A stretch of 64,000 nt of DNA from a virus (IMGVR_UViG_3300042922_000906:40054-104053); one strand, 5' to 3'. Shown: positions 4,657 through 49,440, counted from the stretch's first letter. The notes: generated by a model from the sequence alone, not told the origin. A program made the numbers and translations.

Positions 4657-4932
4657 ATGTTTACTTGGGATTTGGAAAAATGTGATATGGAAATATATGA
4701 ACATGGACATATGGTAATGATGTGTTGTATTCCTAATAAAGATTGTAATAATTTTATTGAAGAGATATCAAATATTATTGGTTATAAACTTGATTATTCA
4801 AATGCGGCTGGAAGAAATATAATTAAATGCTATGCAAAAGATTATGATAATGTATCAAAAATACTTCCTAATTTGGATAAATCACTGTTTACAAAATATA
4901 ACATGGACGATAGTGGATATAACTTTTATTAA
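4657..4932 (+). CDS. hypothetical Cys/His-containing protein
   Basis: ORF of 91 aa with an AAGGAG SD. Confidence 0.35.
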   Translation: MFTWDLEKCDMEIYEHGHMVMMCCIPNKDCNNFIEEISNIIGYKLDYSNAAGRNIIKCYAKDYDNVSKILPNLDKSLFTKYNMDDSGYNFY

Positions 4933-5055
4933 ATAGGCAAACAATACAGTAGATTTAAGTAAATTAATATAATAGGATGTTGTGTATGGGCAAATATCAA
5001 AACGTTCAAGAAATATTAAAAGGTGTGAATGTATTAGAGGAGGTGATTTATTTAA

Positions 5056-5289
5056 ATGATAATGAATATGACAATAACTAGAACATCAAATATAGATTAC
5101 GATTCCATGAAATATATCAATGATGGATTTATTAGTAAGTATTCAGCAGATTGGAATGACACAATAGAAATATTGGACATTAACAACGGAGAAATTAAAT
5201 TTATTCAAGTCAAAAATTTATCTTTATATGATCATAGGCTTATTATGTTTAGTGATCAATGGCATATTATAGAAGCATTAAGTAAATAA
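5056..5289 (+). CDS. hypothetical protein
   Basis: ORF of 77 aa with a GGAGG SD. Confidence 0.3.
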   Translation: MIMNMTITRTSNIDYDSMKYINDGFISKYSADWNDTIEILDINNGEIKFIQVKNLSLYDHRLIMFSDQWHIIEALSK

Positions 5290-5340
5290 CAGATTAGATT
5301 TTAAAGATAAGTAAAAATATGGTATGATGATTATATAGGA

Positions 5341-5643
5341 GTGGTGACTATGTTATTTCTTCAGGGGGAAAATCAAAAAGCAGTAGTATTTAATGAATTC
5401 GGTAGGTCTAACGATATCGTTATTCTATCTAATACATATTTGAGCATGGGAATTGATTATTACCAGTATGAATTTTTTGAAAATGCCAGAGAAATTTTTA
5501 AAGACATCTTAATTGAACAAGAAGTTAGATGGTTGTTGCTTTATACCAACGAATTAAAAGAGAACTTAAAAAAAGAAATTAACTGGATTATACAACTTGA
5601 AAAAGAAGGTATTATTGGTAATAGTATAATAGCTTGTAGATAG
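5341..5643 (+). CDS. hypothetical protein
   Basis: ORF of 100 aa. The start codon is ambiguous: GTG at 5341 or ATG at 5350. Confidence 0.3.
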   Translation: MVTMLFLQGENQKAVVFNEFGRSNDIVILSNTYLSMGIDYYQYEFFENAREIFKDILIEQEVRWLLLYTNELKENLKKEINWIIQLEKEGIIGNSIIACR

Positions 5644-5681
5644 ATAAAAATGATATTTTAAGTGGTAAGGAGATATAGATT

Positions 5682-6116
5682 ATGAAATTAGAAGATGCAA
5701 TAGAAATAGCGGCAAAGGCGCATAGGGGTCAATTAGATAAAGCAGGGCAACCATACATACTTCATCCATTACACGTAATGATGCAATGTAGACACAATGA
5801 AGATGTAAGAATAGTGGCAGTACTGCATGATGTAATTGAAGATGGAGTACAAGGTTATAGAGACTTTATAATTAATACTGGATTTAGACAAGAAATTATT
5901 GATGCTTTGGATTGTTTGACTCATGATAAAAAAGAGGACTACTTTGACTATATCAGCAGAATTAAAACCAATTCTTTAGCAAAGGAAGTAAAACTTTTAG
6001 ATTTAAAACATAATTGTGATCTAGAAAGGTTGCAAAAAGTTACTTATATAGATTTAAAAAGAGTTGCTAAATATAAAAAGGCTATTAATATTTTATTAGA
6101 TATTGAAGAAGATTGA
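5682..6116 (+). CDS. HD-domain (p)ppGpp hydrolase-like protein (small alarmone hydrolase / Mesh1-like)
   Basis: AHRGQLDKAGQPYILHPLHV...AVLHDVIEDG matches the RelA/SpoT-type HD hydrolase signature (H...HD...ED). Length 144 aa. Confidence 0.6.
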   Translation: MKLEDAIEIAAKAHRGQLDKAGQPYILHPLHVMMQCRHNEDVRIVAVLHDVIEDGVQGYRDFIINTGFRQEIIDALDCLTHDKKEDYFDYISRIKTNSLAKEVKLLDLKHNCDLERLQKVTYIDLKRVAKYKKAINILLDIEED

Positions 6117-8674: not shown

Positions 8675-8827
8675 ATGGAAGAATTATTAAAAGAATTACA
8701 AGAAAAACTTAATCAAGTAAAATCTACTTCTGCAAATTACTTATCAGATTATGAAGAAGGTTGCAGAGATGCAAGAATTGATATGCTGAAAGAAATTATT
8801 CTACTTGTTGAAAAGAAAATAATTTAG
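8675..8827 (+). CDS. small hypothetical protein (50 aa; not in the track)
   Basis: AGGAGG SD. A TTTAGTTTTATTGGG element lies upstream. Confidence 0.3.
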   Translation: MEELLKELQEKLNQVKSTSANYLSDYEEGCRDARIDMLKEIILLVEKKII

Positions 8828-8855
8828 TTTTATTGGGAAGTGGGAGGAAGAACAT

Positions 8856-9122
8856 ATGCAAGAAATCAAATATACAGAGAGCGAAAAGTTAAAAGCAATA
8901 TCAGAACAATCACAACTATGTGGTGAATTTTTAGAATGGTTGATGTCAAAGTACAATTTAATTGACAGAAATGAGAAATTTGAAACCCCTAGTATTCCAA
9001 TAGGCTTTTCATCATTTGTTAAAATTGATAATCTTTTGGCTGAATTTTTCGATATAGACATGAGTTTAGTGGAAAAGGAAAGAATACAAATGATTGAAGA
9101 AATGAGAAATAGAAATGGTTAA
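8856..9122 (+). CDS. hypothetical protein
   Basis: ORF of 88 aa with a GGGAGGAAG SD. Preceded by the second copy of TTTAGTTTTATTGGG. Confidence 0.35.
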   Translation: MQEIKYTESEKLKAISEQSQLCGEFLEWLMSKYNLIDRNEKFETPSIPIGFSSFVKIDNLLAEFFDIDMSLVEKERIQMIEEMRNRNG

Positions 9123-9297
9123 AATGAGTCAAAAAAGAACCTGTGAGGGATGTAAAGCATTAGACCAAAGGCAATATATAAATGATTGTCTGCTGGGTTA
9201 TAAATTTGATGAACATTTTAAACCACTAGAAATATGTCCGAAACCAAAGACGTATGAACAATATATTGAAAGTAAACAATGGTATGATAATAGATAA
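9115..9297 (+). CDS. Cys-containing hypothetical protein
   Basis: ORF of 60 aa. Confidence 0.3.
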   Translation: MVKMSQKRTCEGCKALDQRQYINDCLLGYKFDEHFKPLEICPKPKTYEQYIESKQWYDNR

Positions 9298-9340
9298 ATA
9301 TAAGCCAATAAATGTCTGATTTTAAAGGGATGAAAGAGTT

Positions 9341-9571
9341 ATGAATTTAATTACTAGACAGCAGGTTCGCAACTATATAAAAAATAAATCAAAAGTATAT
9401 ATTTTAGAGACTGATGAACTATGGAACGCAAGAGATTTTCACTATGCTATAATAGTCATAGGTTCTAAGGGGTTTTGGTTAAATGCATTTAAGAAGTATA
9501 GTATGGCAGTTAAATATTGTACCAAATTAGGACTAAAAATTGTAAACGATGGAGAAAGTAATTCAATTTAA
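9341..9571 (+). CDS. hypothetical protein
   Basis: ORF of 76 aa. Confidence 0.3.
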   Translation: MNLITRQQVRNYIKNKSKVYILETDELWNARDFHYAIIVIGSKGFWLNAFKKYSMAVKYCTKLGLKIVNDGESNSI

Positions 9572-9727
9572 TATTTCGCAGATCAAAATGCTGTGATTTA
9601 TTAAAATTATATTACTTACATAGTTACACTAGTAATTTACTCTGTACTCTGTTATATTTATTATGTAAACTATCCGATCTATGAGGTATATAATATGAGA
9701 ACATTTTTGCTTATTTTTGCTTAAATT

Positions 9728-10102
9728 GTGGGAATTATTTATTATCATCAGATAGTAACATTTTTTTATCGGTTTGGAAAAGAGCAGATTTATTTGTCAG
9801 AGCCAGAAGTAAATTCAATTGATAAAATAGTAAAGAATGATTCGTTAGCTGATATTCTAATTATCATAATGTTTTTAACTGAAGCAGCATTTTATCTTAT
9901 ATCTATGTTTTATTTTAGATATAAAATTAACACTTACATATCTTTATTTCTACTTATAAATTCTTCAATTGGAAATACCAAGTTAATAATTAGTTTAAAA
10001 TATAAAAAATCACTTCACTATTGGTTTTCAACATGGAACAAACTTATTAAAGTTGCGGCATTGGTTTATGTGATCGGTATATGCATATATCTGTTAATTT
10101 AA
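9728..10102 (+). CDS. hypothetical membrane protein
   Basis: Three to four hydrophobic helices. No clear SD. Confidence 0.25.
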   Translation: MGIIYYHQIVTFFYRFGKEQIYLSEPEVNSIDKIVKNDSLADILIIIMFLTEAAFYLISMFYFRYKINTYISLFLLINSSIGNTKLIISLKYKKSLHYWFSTWNKLIKVAALVYVIGICIYLLI

Positions 10103-10145
10103 TAAAAACTTAACTAAAATATTATAAAATAAATTGTAAAAATCT

Positions 10146-10175
10146 ATTGACAGTAAACTGGTAAAAATATATAAT
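10146..10175 (+). promoter_or_regulatory. sigma-A-type promoter (TTGACA, 18 nt spacer, TATAAT) with an upstream TTAACTAAAATATTATAAAATAAAT element
   Basis: Consensus hexamers. The upstream AT element also recurs at 15281 and 16331. Confidence 0.5.
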
Positions 10176-10213
10176 TAATTCAAGGTTGTAGTTGCAGGAA
10201 AATAACCATTGAA

Positions 10214-10435
10214 ATGGAGGTTTTATTGGGTATGGATATCAAAGATGTTTTTATTAGTAAAGCTAGAAAATATAATAATTATCAAGAGACAGTTTGTGTT
10301 AAAGATAGAAAATGTATAAATTGTACCAGATGGAGATTAAGTTTTCCATATACCTGTAATGACTATGATATGTATACAATCAAAGCAGAAACTTGTTTGA
10401 ATTATACAACAGAATCAAGGCCTGAAGTTGATTAA
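10214..10435 (+). CDS. Cys-rich hypothetical protein
   Basis: ORF of 73 aa. An alternative start at 10236 is possible. Confidence 0.3.
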   Translation: MEVLLGMDIKDVFISKARKYNNYQETVCVKDRKCINCTRWRLSFPYTCNDYDMYTIKAETCLNYTTESRPEVD

Positions 10436-10486
10436 GGTAATTAAAATATTCATTTTAAAGGTTAAATAGAAAGGATATGATTATAG

Positions 10487-11023
10487 ATGAAAGCAACTGG
10501 AATAGTTAGACGTATAGACGATTTAGGAAGAGTTGTAATACCTAGAGAAACACGGAGAGCATTAAGAATTAAAGAAGGAGATCCTCTGGAGATTTTTATT
10601 GAAGATGGTGGAGTAATATTAAAAAAATACAGACCATTTCAAGATTTAATGGAATTTTCAGAGAAGTACGCAGAGTCTTTACATAAAACCTCTGGACATA
10701 TTTGTTTCATTACTGATAGAGATACAATAATTTCTGTAAATGGTACATCTAAAAGAGATTTTCTTGAAAAACCTATTAGTGAGAAGTTGGAAAATATTAT
10801 TGATGAAAGACATTTGTTTATCACAAATACCGAACAGATAAATATAGTTAATGGTCAGAGCTTGAATTTTCATTCTATCATAATAAAACCAATTATGTCT
10901 GAAGGTGAAACCTGTGGTTCAGTAATACTTGCAAGTACAGTTAATAATATAGTTTTTGGAGAAGTTGAAATTAAACTTGTTGAAAATGCAGCCGATTTTT
11001 TAGGTAAACAACTAGAAGATTAA
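10487..11023 (+). CDS. spoVT: SpoVT-like regulator (AbrB-type swapped-hairpin N-domain plus GAF-like C-domain)
   Basis: The N-terminus GIVRRIDDLGRVVIPRETRRALRIKEGDPLEIF is the AbrB/SpoVT DNA-binding fold. Total length 178 aa with a C-terminal sensory domain, matching SpoVT architecture. Confidence 0.75.
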   Translation: MKATGIVRRIDDLGRVVIPRETRRALRIKEGDPLEIFIEDGGVILKKYRPFQDLMEFSEKYAESLHKTSGHICFITDRDTIISVNGTSKRDFLEKPISEKLENIIDERHLFITNTEQINIVNGQSLNFHSIIIKPIMSEGETCGSVILASTVNNIVFGEVEIKLVENAADFLGKQLED

Positions 11024-15397: not shown

Positions 15398-16300
15398 ATG
15401 AAAACTTTTTATGACAAATTTAAATCATACAATAAACCGATCTACGAAAATAAAAATTGGATTGATATGAAAGAAGTATCCAGACTAGTTAATTTAGCCA
15501 AAGGTAATCGAAATACTTCTCAATTTCTAACAGATATGAATTTGACATGTGAAACAGAACAAATTATTGATATGATAAATGGCCGGTATAATTCTTGTAT
15601 AAGACTACATCACTTGAAAAAGATTGCAAAAGCATCTGAAGGAAGAGTGGATTTTGATCAGCTAAATGCTATATTTAAATTTATGGAAAATAATTCTTTG
15701 GATGAATTAAAGAATATTAATATCGAGCGTAGTGATATTTGTCAAGTTAATCTTGGCGAAGCGCTTGACAATGAGCATGGTGGCATAAAGATGTGCGTGG
15801 TTATTTCAAATAATAAAGGAAATGGTTCAAGTGCAACTTTTCAATTAATCCCTTTGTCTTCATCTATCGGGAAAAATTACATTCCTTCACATGTGCCTGT
15901 GGGTTTGGAATCAGGAATATTAAAACCTTCTGTAGCAATGATTGAACAACTTAGAGTTAAAACAAAGGCAAGTCTTTTATTTGATGGTGAGATAATTAAA
16001 GTCGGAAAAGTATCTGAAGCAACCATGATAAAAATAGAATCAGCGATTAAAAAGCAGTTTGGTATGATTAGTCTTAATTTTAATCCAAGATTTGCGGAAG
16101 AAATGGTAAGAGCAATATTAGGAGTTATGAATGTAGTTGAAGATGATGATAATCTTGTTATAGCTAAAAACCTCTTATGGAAAGATCTTGAAGCTTATTG
16201 TGCAGATTATGATAAGGATGCCAAATCAATTTTTAATGAGTTTACAACTAAAATTGCGCGCGGTGAACCTGTTTTTAAGAGATTCTGTCTTGTCGGCTGA
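15398..16300 (+). CDS. MazF/PemK-fold endoribonuclease-domain protein with N- and C-terminal extensions
   Basis: The central region GDICQVNLGEALDNEHGGIKMCVVISNN...FQLIPLSSS...PSHVPV parallels the MazF core (GDIvlvdF.P..GsEq.g.RPavVls...vvPiTs). Confidence 0.5.
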   Translation: MKTFYDKFKSYNKPIYENKNWIDMKEVSRLVNLAKGNRNTSQFLTDMNLTCETEQIIDMINGRYNSCIRLHHLKKIAKASEGRVDFDQLNAIFKFMENNSLDELKNINIERSDICQVNLGEALDNEHGGIKMCVVISNNKGNGSSATFQLIPLSSSIGKNYIPSHVPVGLESGILKPSVAMIEQLRVKTKASLLFDGEIIKVGKVSEATMIKIESAIKKQFGMISLNFNPRFAEEMVRAILGVMNVVEDDDNLVIAKNLLWKDLEAYCADYDKDAKSIFNEFTTKIARGEPVFKRFCLVG

Positions 16301-20450: not shown

Positions 20451-20948
20451 ATGATAAAAATAGTTGAAGGAAATATATTAGATGCAAATGAAAAACTGAT
20501 ATGTCAGCAAGTGAACTGTCAGGGTGTAATGGGTTCTGGATTAGCAAAGCAACTTAAAGATAAATATCCAAAGTTATATCCTTCATATAAGAAATTTTGT
20601 GAAGGTTGTAAAGATAATAATCCAAGAACATTATTGGGAGAGTTTCAAACTGTGCCTATGCCTGATGGAAAAGTAATAGTTAATTTGTTTGGTCAATTTG
20701 ACTTTGGAAGAGATAAAAAATATACAGATTATGATGCATTAAGAAATAGTTTAGAAAATATATTATTTGTTGCAAAAGAATGTGGAAATGATTCAATTGC
20801 TATTCCTTATAATCTAGGCTGTGGATTAGCTGGTGGTGATTGGAATATAGTTTACAAAATAATTGAAGATGTGTTTCAAGATTATGATGTAACTATTTAT
20901 TACCTAATAGGTAATAAAAATCATGTTTTAAGCAGAGGATTAAAATAA
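20451..20948 (+). CDS. macro-domain protein (ADP-ribose binding / ADP-ribosyl hydrolase family)
   Basis: Begins GNILDANEKLICQQVNCQGVMGSGLAKQLK, the N..(V/A)N..G.MG.G(L/I)A signature of macro domains. Length 165 aa. Confidence 0.65.
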   Translation: MIKIVEGNILDANEKLICQQVNCQGVMGSGLAKQLKDKYPKLYPSYKKFCEGCKDNNPRTLLGEFQTVPMPDGKVIVNLFGQFDFGRDKKYTDYDALRNSLENILFVAKECGNDSIAIPYNLGCGLAGGDWNIVYKIIEDVFQDYDVTIYYLIGNKNHVLSRGLK

Positions 20949-21927: not shown

Positions 21928-22377
21928 ATGATGGATAAATTAACAAAATCACTTAAATGTTCTTTCTGTGGTAAATCTCAAAACCAAGTTAAGAGATTGA
22001 TTGCGGGGCCGGGTATTTATATATGTGATGAATGTGTAGATTTGTGTTCAGAAATTATTGAAGAAGAATCTGATATAAAAGTAGATGATTTACTTGATGA
22101 TGTACCGACTCCAAGCATAATTAAAAAATATCTTGATCAGCATGTTATAGGACAAGAAGAAGCTAAAAAATCATTAAGTGTAGCTGTTTATAATCACTAC
22201 AAAAGAATAAATTCTTTAAAGAAAAAGAAAAAATCAGATGATGTAGAAATTCAGAAAAGCAATATACTCATGATCGGTACTACGGGTATAGGAAAAACTG
22301 AATTGGCTAGAACAATAGCGAAAATGCTAAAACTTCCCTTTGCTATTGCTGATGCCACTACGTTAACGGAAGCAGGG
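21928..22377 (+). CDS. clpX: ClpX ATP-dependent protease ATPase subunit, exon 1 (zinc-binding domain plus Walker A)
   Basis: Zinc-binding domain [30 protein letters not shown] and Walker [17 protein letters not shown]. The frame ends ...[10 protein letters not shown] followed by TA, at the intron boundary. Confidence 0.8.
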
Positions 22378-23549
22378 TAAAGGTTTTAAAAAATATTTCA
22401 TATTTTATTCGCATTATTCAAAATTAAGGACGGTAAAGATATATAAGTGATATTGTAAACTATAATTCAGCTATGGAAGATTATATAAATAAACATTTGT
22501 CATTAAGCAAGTTAGCAGAAATTTATAAAATCTCTAGATATAAGCTAACAAAATTATTAAATAAGAATGGTATCAAGATTAGGAATCATAATATTGTTGA
22601 TGTGAACTATAAGGTTGATAATTGCTACTTTGATAAAATTAATACCGAATCAAAAGCGTATTGGCTTGGATTTATTTATGCAGATGGATGTATTAATACG
22701 AGTGGGAATAGTTTAAGATTTTCAATTGAATTAGCCGATTACGATTTTAACCATTTAAAAAAATTTAGAAAAGCAATTAAATCTAATCATCCAATTACTG
22801 AAAGACAAAATAGCAAAAGAAATACATGCAATATTTCAATTAATAGTCGAAACATTGTAAATAAACTAATAGACATTGGATGTGTTACAAATAAAACATA
22901 TAATGGATTTATAGACCCAAACATTTTAAAAACAACAGAAATGAAAATTGCTTTTATTAGAGGTTATTTAGATGGAAATGGTTATATTGACAAGGGTGAC
23001 AAGTATAGAATTGTATTCACATTACAATCAGAAAAATTGGTTGAAGATTTAAATATAATGATAAGAGAGTTAAAAATACATACAAGAATACAAAAAGATC
23101 AAGAATATTTTAGAATACATATTGAAAGAAAAAATGATTTTTATCAACTATTAAATCTAATATATAAAAATGCGAGTATATATTTAGATAGAAAATATGA
23201 AATATTTTTAAGAAGAACAATGCCGTTTGGTCAAGAAACTGACCAAATAATTAGTGCGAAATTAAGCTGGGAAGTCCTTCCAAACATGTACGAACATAAA
23301 GGTAATGTTTTAGGATAATCAGAACCGAAGGCTAATTTTAAAAGATTAGTCAGGGGCAGAGCATAGAGATTGAAATTATATATTCCATTAATATATAAAA
23401 TATAATATCTCCACGAGGTCGCACTACCTAACCTTATATTATAAAAATTTATGGAATTTGATGATTAATATAAGTATGGTAAAAAGATATGCCGAACAAG
23501 TTTGTAATGAACTTGAGGTAAAGATAAAAAGCTTTACGATAACAAATTG
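22378..23549 (+). mobile_element. group I intron interrupting clpX (approx. 1172 nt; 5' exon ends in U, intron ends in G)
   Basis: Joining 22377 to 23550 gives ...[41 protein letters not shown], matching the ClpX consensus across the junction. The insert carries a free-standing LAGLIDADG ORF and about 230 nt of 3' structured sequence. Confidence 0.6.
22473..23318 (+). CDS. LAGLIDADG homing endonuclease (double-motif, intron-encoded)
   Basis: Two dodecapeptide motifs are present: WLGFIYADGCI and IRGYLDGNGYI. Length 281 aa. Confidence 0.75.
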   Translation: MEDYINKHLSLSKLAEIYKISRYKLTKLLNKNGIKIRNHNIVDVNYKVDNCYFDKINTESKAYWLGFIYADGCINTSGNSLRFSIELADYDFNHLKKFRKAIKSNHPITERQNSKRNTCNISINSRNIVNKLIDIGCVTNKTYNGFIDPNILKTTEMKIAFIRGYLDGNGYIDKGDKYRIVFTLQSEKLVEDLNIMIRELKIHTRIQKDQEYFRIHIERKNDFYQLLNLIYKNASIYLDRKYEIFLRRTMPFGQETDQIISAKLSWEVLPNMYEHKGNVLG

Positions 23550-24352
23550 ATGTCGGAGATGACGTAGAAAACATATTGTTAAAACTTCTGCAAGCAGCGG
23601 ACTTTGATGAAGAGCTAGCACAGAAAGGGATTATCTATATTGATGAAATTGATAAAATTGCACGAAAAGGTGAAAATACATCAATTACAAGAGATGTTAA
23701 TGGTGAGGGAGTACAACATGCGTTATTAAAAATACTTGAAGGTACAGTAGCAAGAGTTCCACCACAGGGAGGACGTAAACACCCTCATCAGGAGTGTATT
23801 GAAATAGATACAAGTAATATTCTGTTTATTTGCGGTGGTGCATTTGATGGTATTGATAAGATACTTTCTCAAAAAAATAAGACTGAAAAGAGTATAGGGT
23901 TTGGTGCTTCAGTAAGCAGTAAAATAGAAAACAATAATACAAATTTATTAGAAACAATTGAACCTCATGATTTTGTGAAGTATGGTTTAGTGCCAGAATT
24001 AGTTGGAAGATTACCTGTGATAACTACACTGCAACCATTAGATAAAAATGCGTTATTAAGAATATTAACTGAACCTAAAAATGCAATAGTTAAGCAATAT
24101 CAGAAATTGCTTAATATTGACAATGTTAACCTCGAATTTGAAAATGATGCACTGGAGGAAATTGTTAATAAAGCAATTGAAAGAAAGACTGGTGCTAGAG
24201 GTTTAAGAGGAATACTGGAAAGTGTTATGAAGAATGTTATGTTTGAAATCCCCGATATAAAAAATGCAAAGAAAGTTGTTATTACAAAAGGTGTTGTATT
24301 AGGGCTAGAAAATTCAGTTATTTATGATAGTAAGAATAAAGTTATTGCATAG
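23550..24352 (+). CDS. clpX: ClpX ATPase, exon 2 (Walker B / sensor / C-terminal domain)
   Basis: [10 protein letters not shown] (Walker B), [11 protein letters not shown] and [11 protein letters not shown] all match ClpX. The exon starts at the A of the codon TAT. Confidence 0.8.
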
Positions 24353-24365
24353 AAAGGATAAAAAT

Positions 24366-24917
24366 ATGAAATCAGCTATATCTATTAATCAAAGTGATAA
24401 ACATGCAATCAAAACTTTAAGCGACCACCTTTATGACCTGATTATCAATTTGGATAAAAAGTTTAATAAAATCATATTTGTTTGTATCGGTACAGATCGA
24501 AGTACAGGCGATTCGCTTGCTCCAATAGTAGGTAGTAAAATACATAAGAAATACAATGTTTATGGAACTCTTGAAAATCCAGATCATGCAAAAAATCTAG
24601 AAGAAACTATGAATATGATTGATACTAAAAACAATCTCATTATTGCAATTGATGCCTGTTTAGGTAAGTCGGAGAATGTTGGTAATATTAATATTCATAA
24701 CGGTTCGCTAAAGCCTGGTTCTGCTGTTGGCAAAGATTTAATGGCGGTTGGTGATATTAGTATATCTGGAATAGTTAATTTCAGCGGCTTTATGGACTTC
24801 CTTATACTACAAAATACTAGATTAAGCATTGTAATGAATTTGAGTAATATTATATCAAAAGTTATTTGTAAAACTATGAAGCAAGTAAATAAGGAAAATA
24901 TAAAAAAGAGTGCTTAA
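24366..24917 (+). CDS. yyaC: YyaC-family sporulation protein (GPR-like protease fold)
   Basis: IIFVCIGTDRSTGDSLAPIVG...GTLENPDHAKN...IIAIDACLGK...GSLKPGSAVGKDL...ISISGIVNFSGFMDFLILQNTRLSIVMN aligns along its whole length with B. subtilis YyaC. The start is set at the ATG behind an AAAGGA SD. Confidence 0.8.
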   Translation: MKSAISINQSDKHAIKTLSDHLYDLIINLDKKFNKIIFVCIGTDRSTGDSLAPIVGSKIHKKYNVYGTLENPDHAKNLEETMNMIDTKNNLIIAIDACLGKSENVGNINIHNGSLKPGSAVGKDLMAVGDISISGIVNFSGFMDFLILQNTRLSIVMNLSNIISKVICKTMKQVNKENIKKSA

Positions 24918-25764: not shown

Positions 25765-25814
25765 ATACAAGCCTATAATTCTTCAATGCTAAAATATTAC
25801 AATAGGAGGTATGT

Positions 25815-26717
25815 ATGTACAAAACTGTGAAAAGATTAGATAGTAGTGAGGGGAATGTATGGAAATACATATTTGAATTTGAAAATGCAATAGCTGAAGC
25901 AGTGTTATATAAATATGATTCTTTTAATGAACGTACTGTTATATGTTGTTCAGTGCAAAGTGGATGTCCAATAGGTTGTACATTTTGTGGTACAGGTAAA
26001 AGATTTATTAGGAATCTATCAAATGAAGAAATTCTTAGTCAAATTACTTATATACTAAAGGATATGAACATTGAAGGAGTCAATAGTTCTAGTAAAAAAT
26101 TTCAGATCATGTTTATGAGTATGGGAGAACCAATGCTTAATTTTAAAGAAGTAGAAAGGGCTATTAGAAGTTTGCACATATTATATCCTAATGCTGACCT
26201 ATTAATGTCTACTATTGGTGTAGATAATGATGATGTTTTCAGAAATATTATAGAATTATCAAAAGATATACATAAGGTAGGGTTACAATTTTCAATACAT
26301 AAATCATGTGATGCTGATCGAAATGAATTAATACCATATAAAAATAAGATGAGTTTATACAAGCTAAGAGATGCAGGATTATTATGGTGGAAAGAGACAG
26401 GTAGAAAACCGTATTTAAATTATTGCGTAGATGGAACAAATAATAAGCATAGTGATTTTTTAAAATTGTATATGAATTTTAGTCCACTTGCATTCTGCTT
26501 TACATTTAGTGTGGTTTGTAGTGCCGATGAAACAATGAAAAAAGCAGGATTTAGAAATTTAGAATCAATTCAAAAATTTCAAGAATATTTCTTAGACAGA
26601 GGATATGATTGCAGAATATTTAATCCAGCAGGTCAAGATGATATTGGTGGAGGATGCGGACAATTATTTTATGTGCAGCAATGGTTAAAGGACTATAAGA
26701 AGACCGATAAAATATAA
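25815..26717 (+). CDS. radical SAM RNA methyltransferase of the RlmN/Cfr family (N-terminally minimal)
   Basis: CCSVQSGCPIGCTFCGTGK parallels the RlmN CVSSQVGCALACTFCSTGQ cluster. MFMSMGEPMLN parallels VFMGMGEPLLN. The C-terminal DDIGGGCGQL parallels DDIDAACGQL, the methyl-carrier Cys. At 300 aa it lacks the roughly 75-aa N-terminal accessory domain. Confidence 0.65.
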   Translation: MYKTVKRLDSSEGNVWKYIFEFENAIAEAVLYKYDSFNERTVICCSVQSGCPIGCTFCGTGKRFIRNLSNEEILSQITYILKDMNIEGVNSSSKKFQIMFMSMGEPMLNFKEVERAIRSLHILYPNADLLMSTIGVDNDDVFRNIIELSKDIHKVGLQFSIHKSCDADRNELIPYKNKMSLYKLRDAGLLWWKETGRKPYLNYCVDGTNNKHSDFLKLYMNFSPLAFCFTFSVVCSADETMKKAGFRNLESIQKFQEYFLDRGYDCRIFNPAGQDDIGGGCGQLFYVQQWLKDYKKTDKI

Positions 26718-28495: not shown

Positions 28496-29068
28496 TCAAA
28501 AAATAAATGGAATAATCTTATACTTACATTTTTTCATATATTCTTTGTATTCTTCTCCATAAAAATCAATTAATTTATCTTCCTCTTTGTCAACCATTAA
28601 CCGGCTAACAGGAATATACATAGCGACTATACCCACAGCTAACAAATATGGAGATGCTAGAATAAATCCAATACCTTCAAAAAAGAAACTAGAGTATATA
28701 GGATGACGCACAATAGAGTAGACACCCGAAGTAATTAACTCAGCATTTGTGTTAGGAGTGCTTGAATCTGCCCAGTTGGTGTTTAATTGCTTTAAAGCGA
28801 AAAAATGAAATGCAAAAGCTATTCCCAATATTATGAAAGAATGTGTAATATGTTTATAAAAAAATGAATATGTAAATTTATAACAAAGATATAGATTTGA
28901 TGTGACAGCAACTATTATAACTATGATTAGAGCTATATCTTTCCAAGTGGTTTTAGTTTTAGATTGAGCTTTTTTCTTATTCTTGTACGAAGTCATGAAT
29001 TGGGTAACAACCATAGCGATCATTAATGTCAAAGCAATTAATCCTAATACAATATCCAACATAATCAT
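28496..29068 (-). CDS. membrane methyltransferase of the ICMT/PEMT family
   Basis: Multi-TM protein with the RHPIY motif and a C-terminal E...E region typical of isoprenylcysteine carboxyl / phospholipid methyltransferases. It is the only well-supported minus-strand gene. Confidence 0.55.
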   Translation of the reverse strand: MIMLDIVLGLIALTLMIAMVVTQFMTSYKNKKKAQSKTKTTWKDIALIIVIIVAVTSNLYLCYKFTYSFFYKHITHSFIILGIAFAFHFFALKQLNTNWADSSTPNTNAELITSGVYSIVRHPIYSSFFFEGIGFILASPYLLAVGIVAMYIPVSRLMVDKEEDKLIDFYGEEYKEYMKKCKYKIIPFIF

Positions 29069-29217
29069 TACCTCTAAATTGAAATTTATGTGTATTATAT
29101 TAAACTACAACCTCAATGTCAAATAAATACATAAAAATTCCTCTTTATTTATTTAAAACAATGACATATAATAATATCATAAAACGAACAAATGTTCGAA
29201 AATAGGAGCTGATTAAT

Positions 29218-31304: not shown

Positions 31305-31535
31305 TTGAGAAATTGGATTAAAGTAGCAATAGGGTTGTTTATAATATTTTTTCTATTTGCTAATCCCTATACAAGAATGATCGTTTTGTTTTTACTTCCA
31401 TTAGGTTCAGGCTTTGATGATTTAATTGAAATAGTAGCTTTGGTTTTATTGATAATATTAGGTATCTATAAAATCATAGAGAATTGGGATTACATAGTTG
31501 ATTGGTTTAAATATGATTATAAAAATAAATATTGA
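31305..31535 (+). CDS. small membrane protein
   Basis: ORF of 76 aa with two TM helices. Confidence 0.3.
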   Translation: MRNWIKVAIGLFIIFFLFANPYTRMIVLFLLPLGSGFDDLIEIVALVLLIILGIYKIIENWDYIVDWFKYDYKNKY

Positions 31536-32476
31536 TTAGGAGAATAAAAATGAAAAATATTAAAAAGTTATTGGTTTTAGTTTTAATAATTGTGTTAAGT
31601 ATAAGTTTTACAGGATGTTATCACTGGAGTGAAGTAAGTTCAAATCAAATAGGTTTACAAATGGATGATGGAGTAACAATATCCAAGGTTGTAAATTCTG
31701 GAAGATATACAGATTGGGGTTGGTTTGCAAATATTGAAAAGATAGATACATCTGCAAAGACCGTAATATGGGAAGACCCTGATATGTGGACTTCAGACAA
31801 GCAACCAGTTAAGTTTAAAATTTCTGTTACATATTCAAGAAGTAGAGATGAAAAGGCAGCTAAAATATTATGGGAAAAATATAATTCTGAGGCCACAGAT
31901 GACAAAACACTACAGCAACTTGTTACGACTCGAATTCCAAGAGTAGCAAAACAAGTAACTACAAGTATGACACTAGACCAGATGTTGGGAATTACTTCTG
32001 AAAATTCAGCAGCCAACACCAATGAAGAAAAGGGAAGAGAACTGCTTCAAGATAATATGTCAAAATTATTAAAAGAAGAGTTAAGTGAATGTGGTATTGA
32101 TTTGTTAGATGTAGGTGTTAATGATATAGGCGTGGACGAAGATTATGCTAAACAGCTTAAAGAAAAAGCAGTATCTAAAGTAGCTTCAGAGGTTTCAAAA
32201 GAAAAAACTGCACAATTAAATGAACAGTTAAACCAAGAAAAAGCACAAACACTTATTGATCAAGAAGTTGCAAACAGAAAAAACAATGTGTTGGGTAAAG
32301 AAAACGAAATTTATTTAACAAATCCGAGAGCGTATGAACTGGAAAGATTAAGATTACTAAAAGATGTAATCGGGGATAGTGATAAAATCTATTTTGTTCC
32401 ATCTGATGCAGATTTGAATTTGGTATTGTCGGGTTCTGGTAATGTTAGCGTCCCGATAGATAATAAAGAAAAGTAG
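31532..32476 (+). CDS. lipoprotein with a coiled-coil C-terminal half
   Basis: Signal peptide plus a lipobox (LVLIIVLSISFTGC). Length 314 aa. Confidence 0.5.
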   Translation: MIRRIKMKNIKKLLVLVLIIVLSISFTGCYHWSEVSSNQIGLQMDDGVTISKVVNSGRYTDWGWFANIEKIDTSAKTVIWEDPDMWTSDKQPVKFKISVTYSRSRDEKAAKILWEKYNSEATDDKTLQQLVTTRIPRVAKQVTTSMTLDQMLGITSENSAANTNEEKGRELLQDNMSKLLKEELSECGIDLLDVGVNDIGVDEDYAKQLKEKAVSKVASEVSKEKTAQLNEQLNQEKAQTLIDQEVANRKNNVLGKENEIYLTNPRAYELERLRLLKDVIGDSDKIYFVPSDADLNLVLSGSGNVSVPIDNKEK

Positions 32477-32704
32477 AATAATATAGTATATCGTTTGTAG
32501 GTAACGTATAACCTTCAATCCATAAGGATGTAACAAAATGGCTAATGTGCATGACTTTGACTCATGAAATAGAGTTTCGATTACTCTCATCCTTGCCAAT
32601 AACATCGTGTAATTGCTGTTGTGCTTTGTTATTCATGTGTACCCTCCTTTTTTTGAAAGCGTTTGTAGGTATCGCTTGAGAAATCAGAATAACCTTCAGA
32701 TATA

Positions 32705-32780
32705 TTGCGGATTAGCCAAGTAGGTAAGGCAGTAGATTTTGATTCTATCATACTCAGGTTCAAGTCCTGAATCCGTAGCC
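32705..32780 (+). tRNA. tRNA-Gln (anticodon UUG), CCA encoded
   Basis: Hand-folded cloverleaf. Acceptor stem TGCGGAT/ATCCGTA with a U1:A72 pair and G73, as in bacterial tRNA-Gln. U8 is present. The D-arm has GG in its loop. Anticodon stem GTAGA/TCTAT with loop TTTTGAT (U33, UUG, A37). T-arm TCAGG-TTCAAGT-CCTGA. The 3' CCA lies at 32778-32780. Confidence 0.8.
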
Positions 32781-33156
32781 AATTAATTTAATAAAGGTGA
32801 CTGAAAGTTTAGGGTTAAGGCTTAGACAAAACCAATAAACGATGATGAGTAACGAGGGTGACAGCTTATATGTCTTGAATATACCTAAAGTGGGTATCTA
32901 GGAAGATTAGTTGAAATGATACATACTACTTCCAAAAACTATAATAATTTGACGTGATACTGTGTCTAGGATATTTTGAATATTACTAGAATCGTGAAAA
33001 TTGGAGTTACTAATTAAGTCGGCCGAAGTAGTCAATATAAGTGAACGTGCTATATAAGCTAAATGGTTCTACCTGTATTAAATTAAATACCATAAAATGG
33101 ACATTTTAATGTGTGATTAAATAAAATATTATACATAAGGAAGGAAATAGAAAAAA

Positions 33157-34440
33157 ATGAAAGAATTATTAGAGGTTAAAATACTAATTGATAAGATTGC
33201 AGAGACATCTAGTAGGAATGAAAAAGAAGCAATACTAAAAGATTATAAAGCAGTTCCACTATTTAGAGAAATTTTATACTTTGTTTATTCACCATATATT
33301 CTTACAGGAATAAGCAAGAAGAAAATATCTAAACAGGTTGGTATGATTAATGGTTTTAGTAAACCACAAAACATAAAAGAATTAATGGATTATCTAAGAA
33401 TACATAATTCTGGTAGAGATGTTGATATATCAACATGTGAATGCTTTTATACAAACTTTGATAATGAACTTCAAGACTTTATTAAAAAGATTGTTACTAA
33501 AGATGTGGTTATTGGAATTACTGCCGACAGTATAAATAAGGCATTTGGTGAAGAGTTTATTCCAACATTTGATGTTATGTTGGCAAAGAAATATGATGAA
33601 CATAAAGACAAAGTTAAAGGGAATTTTGTAATAACTCAGAAACTTGACGGAAATAGAATTGTGCTTATTAAAGAGAACGGTTTGATAAAAACATTCACTA
33701 GACAGGGAAAACAATATGAAGGTTTGGAAGAAATAGAATCTGACTTTAAAGATATTCCAATTGATAATATTGTATTTGATGGCGAATTAATTGCTGATGT
33801 AAAAGGAAGTACACATGAAATATATACTGAAACTACAAGTAAGGCAAGAAGTAAGGGAAGCAATAAAACAGGATTGTTATTTTATGTGTTTGATGTTTTA
33901 CCTTTGAAAGAATTTCAAAGTGGCAAATCAAATTTAAATGCCATACAAAGAAAATTGAACTTGAGTGATATTTTTAATAAATTTACTTTGCAACATTGTA
34001 TTGAGGTTAAACCATTATATACTGGCTCTGATGTTACTCAAATCGATAAGTGGATGGAATATGCTAATCAAAACGCATGGGAAGGTTTAATGATTAATCT
34101 TGATAAGCCCTATGTTTGTAAGAGAACAGATTCTATTTTAAAAGTTAAAGGCATGAATACATGCGATCTGAAAGTAATAGGTTTCGAAGAAGGAACTGGA
34201 AGAAATGAAGGAAAACTAGGTGCTTTGTTGGTAGGTTATAAGGGTTATACAGTTGGTGTTGGTAGCGGATTTACTGATGCAGACAGAGATTATATTTGGA
34301 ATCATTTAAAAGAATATGATGGTAAAATAGTTGAAATCCAATATTTCGAAGAATCTAAAAACCAAGATGGTGGATTATCATTAAGATTTCCTGTATTCCT
34401 TAGAAAGAGAGAAGAAGGTAAGGAAGTGAGTTATAATTAA
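33157..34440 (+). CDS. ATP-dependent DNA ligase
   Basis: Motif I QKLDGNR (KxDG), motif III VFDGELI, motif IV WEGLMI and motif V ILKVKG are all present, with a C-terminal OB-fold region. Length 427 aa. Confidence 0.85.
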   Translation: MKELLEVKILIDKIAETSSRNEKEAILKDYKAVPLFREILYFVYSPYILTGISKKKISKQVGMINGFSKPQNIKELMDYLRIHNSGRDVDISTCECFYTNFDNELQDFIKKIVTKDVVIGITADSINKAFGEEFIPTFDVMLAKKYDEHKDKVKGNFVITQKLDGNRIVLIKENGLIKTFTRQGKQYEGLEEIESDFKDIPIDNIVFDGELIADVKGSTHEIYTETTSKARSKGSNKTGLLFYVFDVLPLKEFQSGKSNLNAIQRKLNLSDIFNKFTLQHCIEVKPLYTGSDVTQIDKWMEYANQNAWEGLMINLDKPYVCKRTDSILKVKGMNTCDLKVIGFEEGTGRNEGKLGALLVGYKGYTVGVGSGFTDADRDYIWNHLKEYDGKIVEIQYFEESKNQDGGLSLRFPVFLRKREEGKEVSYN

Positions 34441-39078: not shown

Positions 39079-40383
39079 ATGAGTTATAACGCTTATATAA
39101 CAAAAATCAAGAATATAAGAAAACATACAAATGCAGACAGATTACAAGTAGGTGAATGTTTTGAAAACTTTGTTATTGTTAGTATGGATACACGAGACAA
39201 TGAACTAGGAGTGTACTTCCCAACTGATGGACGGTTAGGTACTGAATACTGTGAATCCAACAATCTACTAAGAAAGAAAGACGAAAATGGTAATAATATT
39301 GGCGGTTATTTAGAACCCGAAAAAAGACATATATCATCGTTGAAATTTCGTGGTGAAAAATCAGATGGTTTATTTATGCCACTAAAGAGCCTCGAAAACT
39401 TTTGTAATATTTCAGATTTAAAAGAAGGAGATATTATTACAACTTTAAATGGAACTTTAATATGTGAAAAATACATACCAAAATCTAATAGAAGAAATAA
39501 TGCTCTAACTAACAATAAAGAAAAGAAGAAGCTTATAGATAAAATATCTTATCCTATGTTTGAAGAACATATAGATACATCACAACTGGCATATAATTTG
39601 AATCAATTCAAACAGGGTGATTTATGTTATATAACTCTTAAAATGCATGGTACATCTCAAAGAACAGCTTATACTATTCAAGAGTTTCTAAAAAAAAGGA
39701 ATTTAATCCAAAGAATATTTAAGTTAAAAAATAAAATAAATAAGTCATGGCAATATGTTAGTGGCACAAGACGTTGTATTTTAATGAATTTTGATAATGG
39801 ATTTTATGGAAATGACTTGTTCAGAAAAACATTCCATGATTACTTTGTTGGGAAGTTATATAAGGGCGAAGAAGTGTTTTATGAAGTTGTTGGATATGTA
39901 AATGAAAATACTACCATCATGCCAGAATGCAATAATAAAAAAACCAATGATAAAGAATTTATCAAGCAATATGGAGAAACAACAAGATTTACATATGGAT
40001 GTGGTGTAGGTCAAAGTGATATTTATGTTTATAGAATAACCAAAACAGATGAAGATGGGAATATTGTTGAATATCCTTGGCATTTAGTCAAGTTGAGATG
40101 TGACCAAATGGGAGTTAAACATGTTCCAGAATTTGATAAATTTATATATTCTACTCAAGAAGATTTGATGAATCGAGTTAATGTATATGTAGATGGAACT
40201 GACCCAATAGGCAAAACTCATGTTAGAGAAGGTGTGGTTATAAGAATAGAAAACAGAGAAAAATTTTCTGCCTTTAAACATAAGAATTTTAATTTTAAAG
40301 TATTAGAAGGAATTATCAAAGCAAATGATGTTTTAGATATGGAGGAGGCTAATAGTGAAGAATTATCAACAAATAATGAATAG
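39079..40383 (+). CDS. RNA ligase (Rnl2-type nucleotidyltransferase motifs with an N-terminal OB-like domain)
   Basis: Motif I LKMHGTSQ (KxHG as in T4 Rnl2 KIHG), motif IV REGVVIRIEN (EGxV) and motif V AFKHKNF (K..K). The N-terminus IRKHTNADRLQVGEC is OB / tRNA-binding-like. Confidence 0.6.
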   Translation: MSYNAYITKIKNIRKHTNADRLQVGECFENFVIVSMDTRDNELGVYFPTDGRLGTEYCESNNLLRKKDENGNNIGGYLEPEKRHISSLKFRGEKSDGLFMPLKSLENFCNISDLKEGDIITTLNGTLICEKYIPKSNRRNNALTNNKEKKKLIDKISYPMFEEHIDTSQLAYNLNQFKQGDLCYITLKMHGTSQRTAYTIQEFLKKRNLIQRIFKLKNKINKSWQYVSGTRRCILMNFDNGFYGNDLFRKTFHDYFVGKLYKGEEVFYEVVGYVNENTTIMPECNNKKTNDKEFIKQYGETTRFTYGCGVGQSDIYVYRITKTDEDGNIVEYPWHLVKLRCDQMGVKHVPEFDKFIYSTQEDLMNRVNVYVDGTDPIGKTHVREGVVIRIENREKFSAFKHKNFNFKVLEGIIKANDVLDMEEANSEELSTNNE

Positions 40384-48609: not shown

Positions 48610-48636
48610 TGATTTTATGTGACGAAGGGAGAAAAT

Positions 48637-49419
48637 ATGATAAAAGTTAATGGTTTTCTTGTTGGAAACGAGTGTTTTCCTAATAATGAAAGGATATTAA
48701 AAATAAATGATTTTGGTGATAAATACTTTGATATTGAATTTAAGTACGAAACAGATATTGACATTTCTATTTTAATAATGGTCAAGAAGTACCTAGATGA
48801 TACATATCCTAATTCATACATACATTTAATAATGAAGTATGTTCCATACTCAAGAATGGATAGAAAAATTGAAGGATATATGTTCAGCCTTAAGTATTTT
48901 TGTCAGCTAATAAATGATTTACATTTTAGTGATGTTCAGGTATTAGATACACACTCAAATGTAACAACTGCTTTACTTGATAGATGTACGGAAATGAGCA
49001 TTCAAGATAATATCAGTAGAATATTTTCAAATATTCATATTGATTATGTTTTTTATCCTGATAACGGAGCAATGAAAAGATATAGTGAAATTCTTAAAAT
49101 TCCAGTACCATACTTCTACGGAAATAAGAAAAGAAATCTTAATACTGGTGAAATTGTCGGCTATGAATTAGTAGATTGTCCAGACATTAAGGATAAAGAT
49201 ATTTTAATAATAGATGACTTGTGTGCAAAAGGATTTACATTCTATAATGCAGCACAAAAGTTAAAAGACAATGGAGCTAATAATATTAATTTATATGTAT
49301 CTCATTGTGAAAATTCTATTTATCAAGGACAATTACTGAAATCTGATCTAATTAAGACCATATTTACAACTGATTCAATTTTAACTGATTGGTCAAGTAA
49401 AATATTATATAATGTCTAA
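48637..49419 (+). CDS. ribose-phosphate pyrophosphokinase-family enzyme (Prs-like; candidate ADP-ribose pyrophosphokinase of a phage NAD+ pathway)
   Basis: KYVPYSRMDRK parallels the Prs segment IPYFGYARQDRK. ILIIDDLCAKGFTF is the C-terminal PRPP-binding loop. The start is set at the ATG behind a GAAGGGAG SD. Confidence 0.65.
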   Translation: MIKVNGFLVGNECFPNNERILKINDFGDKYFDIEFKYETDIDISILIMVKKYLDDTYPNSYIHLIMKYVPYSRMDRKIEGYMFSLKYFCQLINDLHFSDVQVLDTHSNVTTALLDRCTEMSIQDNISRIFSNIHIDYVFYPDNGAMKRYSEILKIPVPYFYGNKKRNLNTGEIVGYELVDCPDIKDKDILIIDDLCAKGFTFYNAAQKLKDNGANNINLYVSHCENSIYQGQLLKSDLIKTIFTTDSILTDWSSKILYNV

Positions 49420-49440
49420 CAAGAATAAGAGGAGAAAAGA

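Follow-up and report, generated by a model that had tools for sequence, protein, structure and literature searches.

A short phage radical SAM protein from a distinct branch of the RlmN/Cfr superfamily and its genomic ties to NAD+ genes

RlmN, a dual-specificity C2-methyltransferase of A2503 in 23S rRNA and A37 in tRNA (NCBIfam model TIGR00048; PDB codes 3RFA, 5HR7 and 6FZ6), is universal in bacteria and combines an N-terminal HhH2 domain with a partial TIM-barrel core of the radical S-adenosylmethionine (SAM) type. The core carries a β'1-3 extension, a CxxxCxxC motif, a GEP SAM motif, E105, two mechanistic cysteines and a flexible C-terminal loop that holds the methyl-carrier cysteine. The enzyme from Escherichia coli requires whole tRNA, and because the isolated anticodon stem-loop is not a substrate, recognition of RNA tertiary structure matters for canonical RlmN. 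Cfr (NF000424 and TIGR04432; PDB code 9P0P) belongs to the same superfamily and methylates C8 of A2503 in 23S rRNA. Two recent papers on Cfr structures, including a Cfr-rRNA complex solved by cryo-EM, describe the residues that lie near or contact A2503 and its neighbours; Q329 is important for C8 specificity, and the HhH2 domain is called crucial for rRNA binding in the cryo-EM paper. A different kind of system, the phage NAD+ reconstitution pathway NARP1, was defined by two genes, Adps and Namat. Here we describe a gene that touches on all of these, located at positions 25815-26717 of a 64,000-nucleotide stretch of viral DNA (IMGVR_UViG_3300042922_000906:40054-104053, hereafter the window), which an initial annotation made from the DNA alone had taken for a minimal RlmN/Cfr-family methyltransferase. 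The encoded protein is a distinct variant of these enzymes, and its most informative property is its tie to genes of NAD+ salvage and reconstitution. The gene probably has a function other than ribosome methylation or antibiotic resistance.

The open reading frame (ORF) begins at an ATG preceded by a ribosome-binding site, and its main elements are given below. Conservation counts refer to the 152 family sequences recovered from the loci described further on, which show 40-86% identity, and are compared with 24 canonical RlmN and Cfr enzymes.

25804-25809, plus strand: strong Shine-Dalgarno sequence AGGAGG, evident in the DNA itself, with a 5-nt spacing to the ATG.
25815-26717, plus strand: short RlmN/Cfr-superfamily radical SAM protein of 300 residues, with a bare radical SAM core, a three-strand β extension, and a C-terminal loop and helix.
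25944-25946, plus strand: codon of C44, aligned with the crosslink-resolving cysteine (C118 of E. coli RlmN, C105 of Cfr); Cys in 148/150 family sequences.
25965-25988, plus strand: CxxxCxxC motif (C51, C55 and C58), the putative [4Fe-4S] cluster ligands from motif and alignments.
26424-26426, plus strand: codon of C204, a family-specific invariant cysteine (149/149); Leu, Met, Ile or Val in canonical RlmN and Cfr.
26517-26519, plus strand: codon of C235, a family-specific invariant cysteine (150/150); Asn in 24/24 canonical enzymes (E. coli N312, numbering derived here).
26655-26657, plus strand: codon of C281, aligned with the methyl-carrier cysteine (C355 of E. coli RlmN, C338 of Cfr); Cys in 148/148 family sequences.

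The sequence features on which the initial annotation relied are all found in the ORF, namely the cluster motif in its RlmN context (SGCPIGCTFCGTGK, with C51, C55 and C58), the MGEP block (MSMGEP at residues 101-106) and the C-terminal DDIGGGCGQL with C281. The protein falls within the RlmN/Cfr superfamily by sequence comparison and by predicted fold, as had been proposed. Pfam detects only the generic Radical_SAM domain (34 bits), and the top NCBIfam match is to the RlmN model TIGR00048 (E = 1.5e-30, 106.4 bits), with the Cfr models next. A PDB sequence search returned RlmN (6fz6, E = 2.9e-20), Cfr (9p0p, 3.6e-14) and E. coli RlmN (4e-13); the matches to TIGR00048 and 6fz6 go well beyond chance similarity. 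Alignments made by HMMER to the solved RlmN and Cfr chains superimpose C44 on C118/C105 and C281 on C355/C338, and thus both the methyl-carrier and the second catalytic cysteine of the initial annotation are retained. An AlphaFold2 model (pLDDT 88.3, pTM 0.88) searched with Foldseek is closest to RlmN (TM 0.72-0.78) and then to Cfr (0.62), with the remaining radical SAM folds at 0.52 or less. The protein is indeed minimal: residues 7-284 match positions 73-342 of the 355 in TIGR00048, and only 11 residues precede the shared core in a multiple alignment, versus 63-103 in full-length RlmN and Cfr, from which we conclude that the N-terminal HhH2 domain is absent.

Membership of the superfamily does not extend to identity as RlmN or Cfr, and on this point the initial annotation does not hold. 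The score against TIGR00048 lies far below the cutoff of 290 bits, as do those against the other RlmN models (67-92 bits, cutoffs 441-633) and against the Cfr models NF000424 (86.5 bits, cutoff 530) and TIGR04432 (80 bits, cutoff 550). An alignment of 109 sequences was built with MAFFT from the clade of the query protein, additional short forms, full-length RlmNs of metagenomic origin, and RlmN and Cfr references taken from records of plasmids and chromosomes, and 105 of them were used for a distance-based neighbour-joining tree (257 core columns, 100 bootstraps). The 46-member query clade is split from all 24 canonical enzymes in 98/100 bootstraps, and a deeper split is found in 90/100. Every one of the 100 bootstraps joins Cfr with Cfr(D), and the pair is placed among RlmN, not with the query family. 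Core identity is 23-28% between the query and either RlmN or Cfr (23-27% to the E. coli and Staphylococcus aureus RlmN references), versus 38-41% between RlmN and Cfr. The two splits and these identities place the query family, at the level of sequence, as a third branch of the superfamily, deeper in the tree and separate from RlmN and Cfr alike. Placement outside both clades had been named beforehand by the initial annotation as the outcome that would speak against it, and is the one obtained.

The family is sizeable. A word-indexed search gave 5,542 matches at E <= 0.001, the best 120 of which are 63-78% identical to the query, and when representatives at 50% identity were searched exhaustively, 75 clusters scored E <= 1e-30, with full-length RlmN first appearing near E ~1e-24. 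The proteins are about 295 residues long, and members with 45-47% identity are carried by isolated phages of Stenotrophomonas, Xanthomonas, Vibrio, Salmonella and Aeromonas. In contrast to the universal RlmN, the family occurs mainly in phages and in a few cellular NAD operons (76 loci among 185,579 species genomes). Other short RlmN-like metagenomic clades (such as those of P0200, P0201, P0207 and P0248) also lack the N-terminal domain and keep both cysteines, but the main split (90/100) leaves them with RlmN and Cfr, and they have few of the residues specific to the query family (0-55% per position).

The catalytic set consists of E28 (E105 in E. coli), C44, C51, C55 and C58, E105 of the GEP motif, and C281, and is invariant in 148-151 of the 152 family sequences. 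Six further residues, Q158, N202, C204, S232, C235 and F269, are essentially invariant in the family and never found in canonical enzymes, where the equivalent positions of E. coli RlmN are A231, E278, a Leu/Met/Ile/Val position, I309, N312 and R344, the last being Arg in 24/24 sequences. In the AlphaFold2 model, C204 and C235 are located at the ends of adjacent barrel strands. By contrast with the catalytic set, the residues that contact the RNA backbone around the target adenosine in Cfr have been replaced throughout the family. According to the alignment, S103 of Cfr (T116 in E. coli RlmN) corresponds to V42, and S187 (T209) to L130; N288, which contacts the phosphate of A2503 and is Asn in 24/24 canonical enzymes (N307 in RlmN), corresponds to T230; and R327, which contacts the ribose O4' (R344), corresponds to F269. 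The pair R184/R185 on the H90 stem (R206/R207) is A127 and D or E128 in the family, S182 is deleted, Q329 is replaced by P271, and the aromatic pocket residues W101 and F330 by R40 and A272. The Cfr pocket as a whole (M95, W101, S103, S151, S153, Q329 and F330) is not reproduced, although fold and cysteines are common to both; the basic α5/β6 loop is missing as well, and none of the 46 query-clade sequences has a residue aligned with Cfr K280 or K283. The core is also more acidic, with a median pI of 5.5 and a net charge of -5.5 versus 7.7 and +1 in canonical enzymes, and members from isolate phages reach -11 to -14. Judging from the alignments, the residues that bear the chemistry are under strong constraint, whereas the RNA-holding apparatus is not. 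The initial annotation had proposed A2503 of 23S rRNA and A37 of tRNA as targets, methylated at C2 by RlmN or at C8 by Cfr; the family-wide loss of backbone contacts and the substitution at the C8 determinant Q329 speak against both.

The contexts of single relatives looked unconserved. Genomic context was therefore analyzed at 80 IMG/VR loci and 76 loci from contigs of one genome per species, with ORFs called by a simple longest-ORF heuristic and neighbours clustered by BLASTP; dereplication at 85% identity of the RlmN-like protein left 155 loci in 111 groups. The recurrent neighbours are the nicotinamidase PncA, the nicotinate phosphoribosyltransferase PncB (above NCBIfam cutoff), NadD, NadE in both its glutamine-dependent and NH3-dependent forms, an NrtR-type Nudix regulator responsive to ADP-ribose (ADPR), and Nampt-like and Prs-like proteins, while NADAR, Macro and T4 Rnl1-type RNA ligase proteins recur at lower frequency. 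Of the 111 groups, 23 have an NAD gene within 6 kb, and in 14 it is an immediate neighbour. The NAD share of neighbours is 8.7% at rank 1 and 7.7% at rank 2 and falls to 1.4% or less from rank 6 outward; the odds ratio of 15 for ranks 1-2 versus 6 and beyond (Fisher p = 2e-16) is indicative only, as genes within one locus are not independent. These associations come in more than 10 different gene orders, at loci with 44-86% identity to the query. Representative arrangements, with X for the RlmN-like gene, are:

L101: pncA-pncB-X-nadE-...-nadD-...-nrtR.
L105: X-nadE-nadD.
L161: pncA-pncB-nadE-X.
L130: X-pncA-pncB-nadD.
L055: pncA-X-nadE.
L139, the isolate Ornithinimicrobium murale: pncA-X-nrtR, each ORF overlapping the next by 4 nt.
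L135, L155 and L158, Saccharibacteria: divergent pncB<-pncA<- X-> <-nrtR<-nadE.
L047 and L137: X-Prs-Nampt; L098 has the same order with intervening ORFs.
L059 and L065: Nampt-X; L082 has the same order with one small ORF between.
L009, cultured Vibrio phages: Prs-Nampt-X.

One of the Saccharibacteria loci is plainly chromosomal, having a methionyl-tRNA synthetase gene upstream, and the family is for this reason not restricted to viruses. Among 127 immediate neighbours from the other 88 groups, which have no NAD gene, no Pfam family occurs more than twice. NAD+ metabolism is thus the only recurrent genomic partner of the family. Two single occurrences were noted among these loci. A chromosomal NAD salvage cluster on the Saccharibacteria contig JAPUEH010000007.1 (L154, 2229-3563) encodes a fusion of a NUDIX domain to an APH-like kinase beside pncB-pncA and the RlmN-like gene, and a Tad3-type Thoeris inhibitor, likewise directed against NAD+-based immunity, is encoded directly next to a family member at a locus that has no NAD genes.

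The window itself contains a pair of candidate partners at some distance from the RlmN-like gene:

48619-49419, plus strand: Prs-like (Adps-like) gene with Pribosyltran and Pribosyl_synth domains, 22 kb downstream; putative functional partner.
49441-50925, plus strand: Nampt-like (Namat-like) gene with NAPRTase and NAMPT_N domains; putative functional partner.

The pair, spanning 48619-50925, has the Pfam signature by which NARP1 was discovered. Weak PADLOC matches of the Prs-like protein to ShosT probably reflect similarity of the phosphoribosyltransferase domain. At a closely related locus (L022, 86% identical), a Prs-like homolog starts 43 bp after the RlmN-like gene. In the 23 of 111 groups, the genes of the family lie close either to Prs-like and Nampt-like genes, as in a NARP1-like pathway, or to Preiss-Handler genes (pncA, pncB, nadD, nadE) and the regulator gene nrtR. 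The described NARP1 differs in having been defined by two genes, and the radical SAM protein is not homologous to any enzyme of NAD metabolism. Papers on NARP1, NARP2, NARP3, Adps and the RyR domain mention no radical SAM or RlmN-like partner. In the literature searched, beyond which other papers may exist, we found none on the short phage RlmN-like family or tying a radical SAM protein to NARP, NrtR, the Preiss-Handler pathway, nicotinamide phosphoribosyltransferase, pncA or anti-defence.

We propose that the gene encodes a class A radical SAM enzyme of a distinct clade that is accessory to NAD+ salvage or reconstitution and acts on an adenine-containing nucleotide of the NAD+ pathway, a reading to which we assign a probability of roughly 40%. 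By analogy to RlmN and Cfr, the protein is most likely catalytically competent and works by their mechanism. One SAM would methylate C281, and a second would be cleaved at the [4Fe-4S] cluster of C51, C55 and C58 to yield the 5'-deoxyadenosyl radical; the radical would activate the S-methyl group of C281, which would add to an sp2 carbon of a purine ring, and C44 would resolve the covalent adduct. The parts with which canonical enzymes grip structured RNA and the target-nucleotide backbone appear to have been lost from the clade. The enzyme would work with the products of pncA, pncB, nadD and nadE under nrtR in cells and with the NARP1-like Prs/Nampt pair in phages. Its substrate would be NAD+, ADPR or a derivative, rather than A2503 of 23S rRNA or A37 of tRNA, and in a phage it may be accessory to the countering of NAD+-depleting immunity. 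The canonical sites are disfavoured because contacts to the backbone on either side of the target nucleotide are lost, as is the domain that recognises RNA tertiary structure, and because the gene is linked in operons to two NAD+ routes. These two routes share only the nicotinamide input and the NAD+ output, and the three observations together suggest a nucleotide of the NAD+ pathway as substrate. In view of the homology to RlmN and Cfr, the most conservative candidate is the adenine of NAD+ or ADPR. Purifying selection on the catalytic residues favours a competent enzyme, as does an intein in the cluster motif of the relative at L022. The intein, of ~342 residues with LAGLIDADG-type motifs, is encoded in the 86%-identical homolog at 8801-10729 of IMGVR_UViG_3300024999_000040 and sits between F57 and C58 within the CxxxCxxC motif (CTF|CLPEE...VHN|CGTGK), directly ahead of the third cluster cysteine.

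Several observations weigh against an NAD+-pathway substrate. To our knowledge every characterised member of the superfamily acts on RNA, and we know of no methylated NAD species. Some equivalents of RNA-contacting residues are kept, namely R40 and R197, K198 and Y/F200 (R249, K250 and Y252 in Cfr), and at some loci the gene lies 25-474 bp from tRNA genes. No NAD gene is found within 6 kb in 79% of the locus groups, and in the window the linkage is loose, with 22 kb between the RlmN-like gene and the NARP1-like pair. Many loci from the genome collection are contigs of metagenome-assembled genomes and may be mis-binned phage, and the linkage could in part be hitchhiking, as accessory and anti-defence genes of phages cluster in islands. 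The tree, moreover, is a neighbour-joining tree on one MAFFT alignment, and the ORF calls are crude.

The retained RNA-contact residues lend themselves to a somewhat less likely explanation, in which the protein is an RNA adenine C-methyltransferase with non-canonical recognition (of a tRNA anticodon loop or a small RNA, for instance) that tunes or protects translation during infection, the NAD linkage arising from shared islands or co-regulation. All known relatives methylate RNA, the fold and catalytic set are conserved, 6/56 viral groups have a neighbouring gene for a T4 Rnl1-type RNA ligase, and the gene is found within or beside tRNA clusters in ANB28 and in the L029 and L068 groups. The window also contains two genes for tRNA-Gln(UUG), the best-studied tRNA substrate of RlmN (the E. 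coli enzyme requires U38):

32524-32598: tRNA-Gln(UUG).
32706-32781: tRNA-Gln(UUG), ~110 bp from the first; the anticodon loops of the two differ (A37-C38 and A37-U38).

However, the E. coli enzyme rejects a lone anticodon stem-loop, while the present protein lacks both the domain and the residues by which RNA structure and backbone are held. As a clue, the tRNA linkage is unconvincing, since any tRNA occurs within 10 kb in only 15/56 viral groups and tRNA-Gln in 5, with no clear bias to RlmN-type isoacceptors. Hitchhiking, furthermore, leaves unexplained the pncA-X-nrtR operon with its 4-nt overlaps and the chromosomal Saccharibacteria clusters. A change in the chemistry itself is an improbable alternative: C204 and C235, possibly with C44 and C281, would form a redox pair or coordinate an additional metal or Fe-S site, and the enzyme would perform something other than a simple methylation. 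The invariance of these cysteines, their absence from RlmN and Cfr and their predicted position in the barrel are in line with this idea, as is the replacement of canonical invariants by N202, S232 and Q158, but the complete RlmN catalytic set points most simply to conserved chemistry, and two cysteines alone cannot hold a cluster.

We also doubt strongly that the protein is a streamlined ordinary RlmN making m2A2503, m2A37 or both, as implied by its best hidden Markov model match and by the automated JGI annotation as 23S rRNA (adenine2503-C2)-methyltransferase. Besides the 106 bits against a cutoff of 290 and the position outside the RlmN clade, the canonical invariants R344, N307, N312, E278, I309 and A231 and the R206/R207 pair are replaced, and two additional invariant cysteines are present. 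Hosts almost always have an RlmN of their own, and phage-deposited sequences with a canonical copy, such as the UNVERIFIED faecal scaffold at L020, keep it at full length. A mobile determinant of PhLOPSA resistance acting as a Cfr-like m8A2503 methylase, as the initial annotation had envisaged, is close to negligible. The shared superfamily and the rank of Cfr as second-best PDB sequence match are all that favour it, against scores of 80-86 bits where 530-550 are required, a Cfr pair that groups with RlmN and away from the query clade, and the substitution of Q329, W101 and F330 by P271, R40 and A272. No plasmid homolog belongs to the family: every plasmid match is below 60% identity, and those among the matches listed do not exceed 33%.

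Returning to the NAD+-pathway proposal, a bolder and rather doubtful form of it is that the family comprises the first class A radical SAM methylase on a free nucleotide, methylating at C2 or C8 the adenine of NAD+, ADPR or an ADPR-derived immune signal. Phages with NARP1 or Preiss-Handler genes might then blunt SIR2-HerA, Thoeris and other TIR defences, either through a cofactor that NADases cannot cleave or by disabling the signal, and some bacteria, Saccharibacteria and actinobacteria among them, might use the enzyme in an NrtR-controlled salvage regulon. If true, class A radical SAM methylases would extend beyond RNA substrates. The family keeps the radical methylation machinery of RlmN and Cfr, sheds the parts that hold RNA, and is repeatedly tied to NAD+ operons in phages and some cells; should the link be functional, it would add an unrecognised enzyme to the conflict of phages and bacteria over NAD+. 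Thousands of such genes are labelled 23S rRNA (adenine2503-C2)-methyltransferase by annotation pipelines and might be reported as Cfr-like in a resistance screen; on the present evidence both labels are unsafe. Culturable carriers include Salmonella phage Arash, Ornithinimicrobium murale DSM 22056 and Vibrio phages, for example 496E54-1, in which the Prs-like and Nampt genes precede the RlmN-like gene.

Some members and relatives of the family have unusual architectures. A NUDIX fusion in the query clade (P0123) is a single cluster on a single 9.3-kb contig, and a dedicated database search for a second protein of this kind found none. The metagenomic protein P0201 (759 residues), from a different short clade nearer to canonical RlmN, is fused to an HD/HD_assoc (dGTPase-like) phosphohydrolase. 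Both fusions were considered as clues to the substrate and given little weight. Extensions of 70-110 residues at the N-terminus of some members were likewise considered as a substitute RNA-binding domain and rejected: they are heterogeneous, have no Pfam match, and each includes the normal start Met, and are probably read-through gene calls. In Moorella phage MTATph1 (L018, ~4845-5807), a distant short RlmN-like gene (33% identity), annotated as two hypothetical proteins, is broken by an in-frame stop that could mark a pseudogene, a recoding event or a sequencing error.

The window has a G+C content of 26-32% and nearly all of its ORFs on the plus strand. It encodes proteins of PHROG families such as a DnaB-like helicase, an RNA ligase, a Sak4-like protein and integrase-like proteins, from which its phage nature follows, in agreement with the phage-borne gene of the initial annotation; near-identical DNA was not found in deposited phage genomes. 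The ORFs flanking the RlmN-like gene (153, 105, 193 and 113 residues) match no Pfam family and are uninformative, and neither the RlmN-like protein nor three neighbours of unassigned function match PADLOC defence models. Accessory and repair genes at 15398-16300, 20451-20948, 24324-24917, 31532-32476, 33157-34440 and 39079-40383 encode MazF/PemK-like, Macro domain, YyaC/DUF1256 spore-protease-like, Band_7/prohibitin, ATP-dependent DNA ligase and RNA ligase proteins, and the spore-protease-like protein hints at a Firmicutes host. The clpX gene is split (21928-24352): its N-terminal ORF, with the zinc finger and Walker A motif, ends immediately behind the conserved TLTEAG motif and is followed by an ORF for a free-standing LAGLIDADG endonuclease (22473-23318), and ClpX coding (AAA_2, ClpB_D2-small) returns ~1.1 kb later. 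The arrangement, also seen at L001 and L002, looks like an intron with a homing endonuclease, and Rfam group I and II intron models gave no match to it even at E <= 1. Downstream of the RlmN-like gene, an ICMT/PEMT-like membrane methyltransferase gene (28496-29068, minus strand) is the sole sizeable minus-strand gene of its region, and just upstream of it lies a perfect 12/12 sigma-70 consensus (TTGACA-17-TATAAT; 29094-29122, minus strand).

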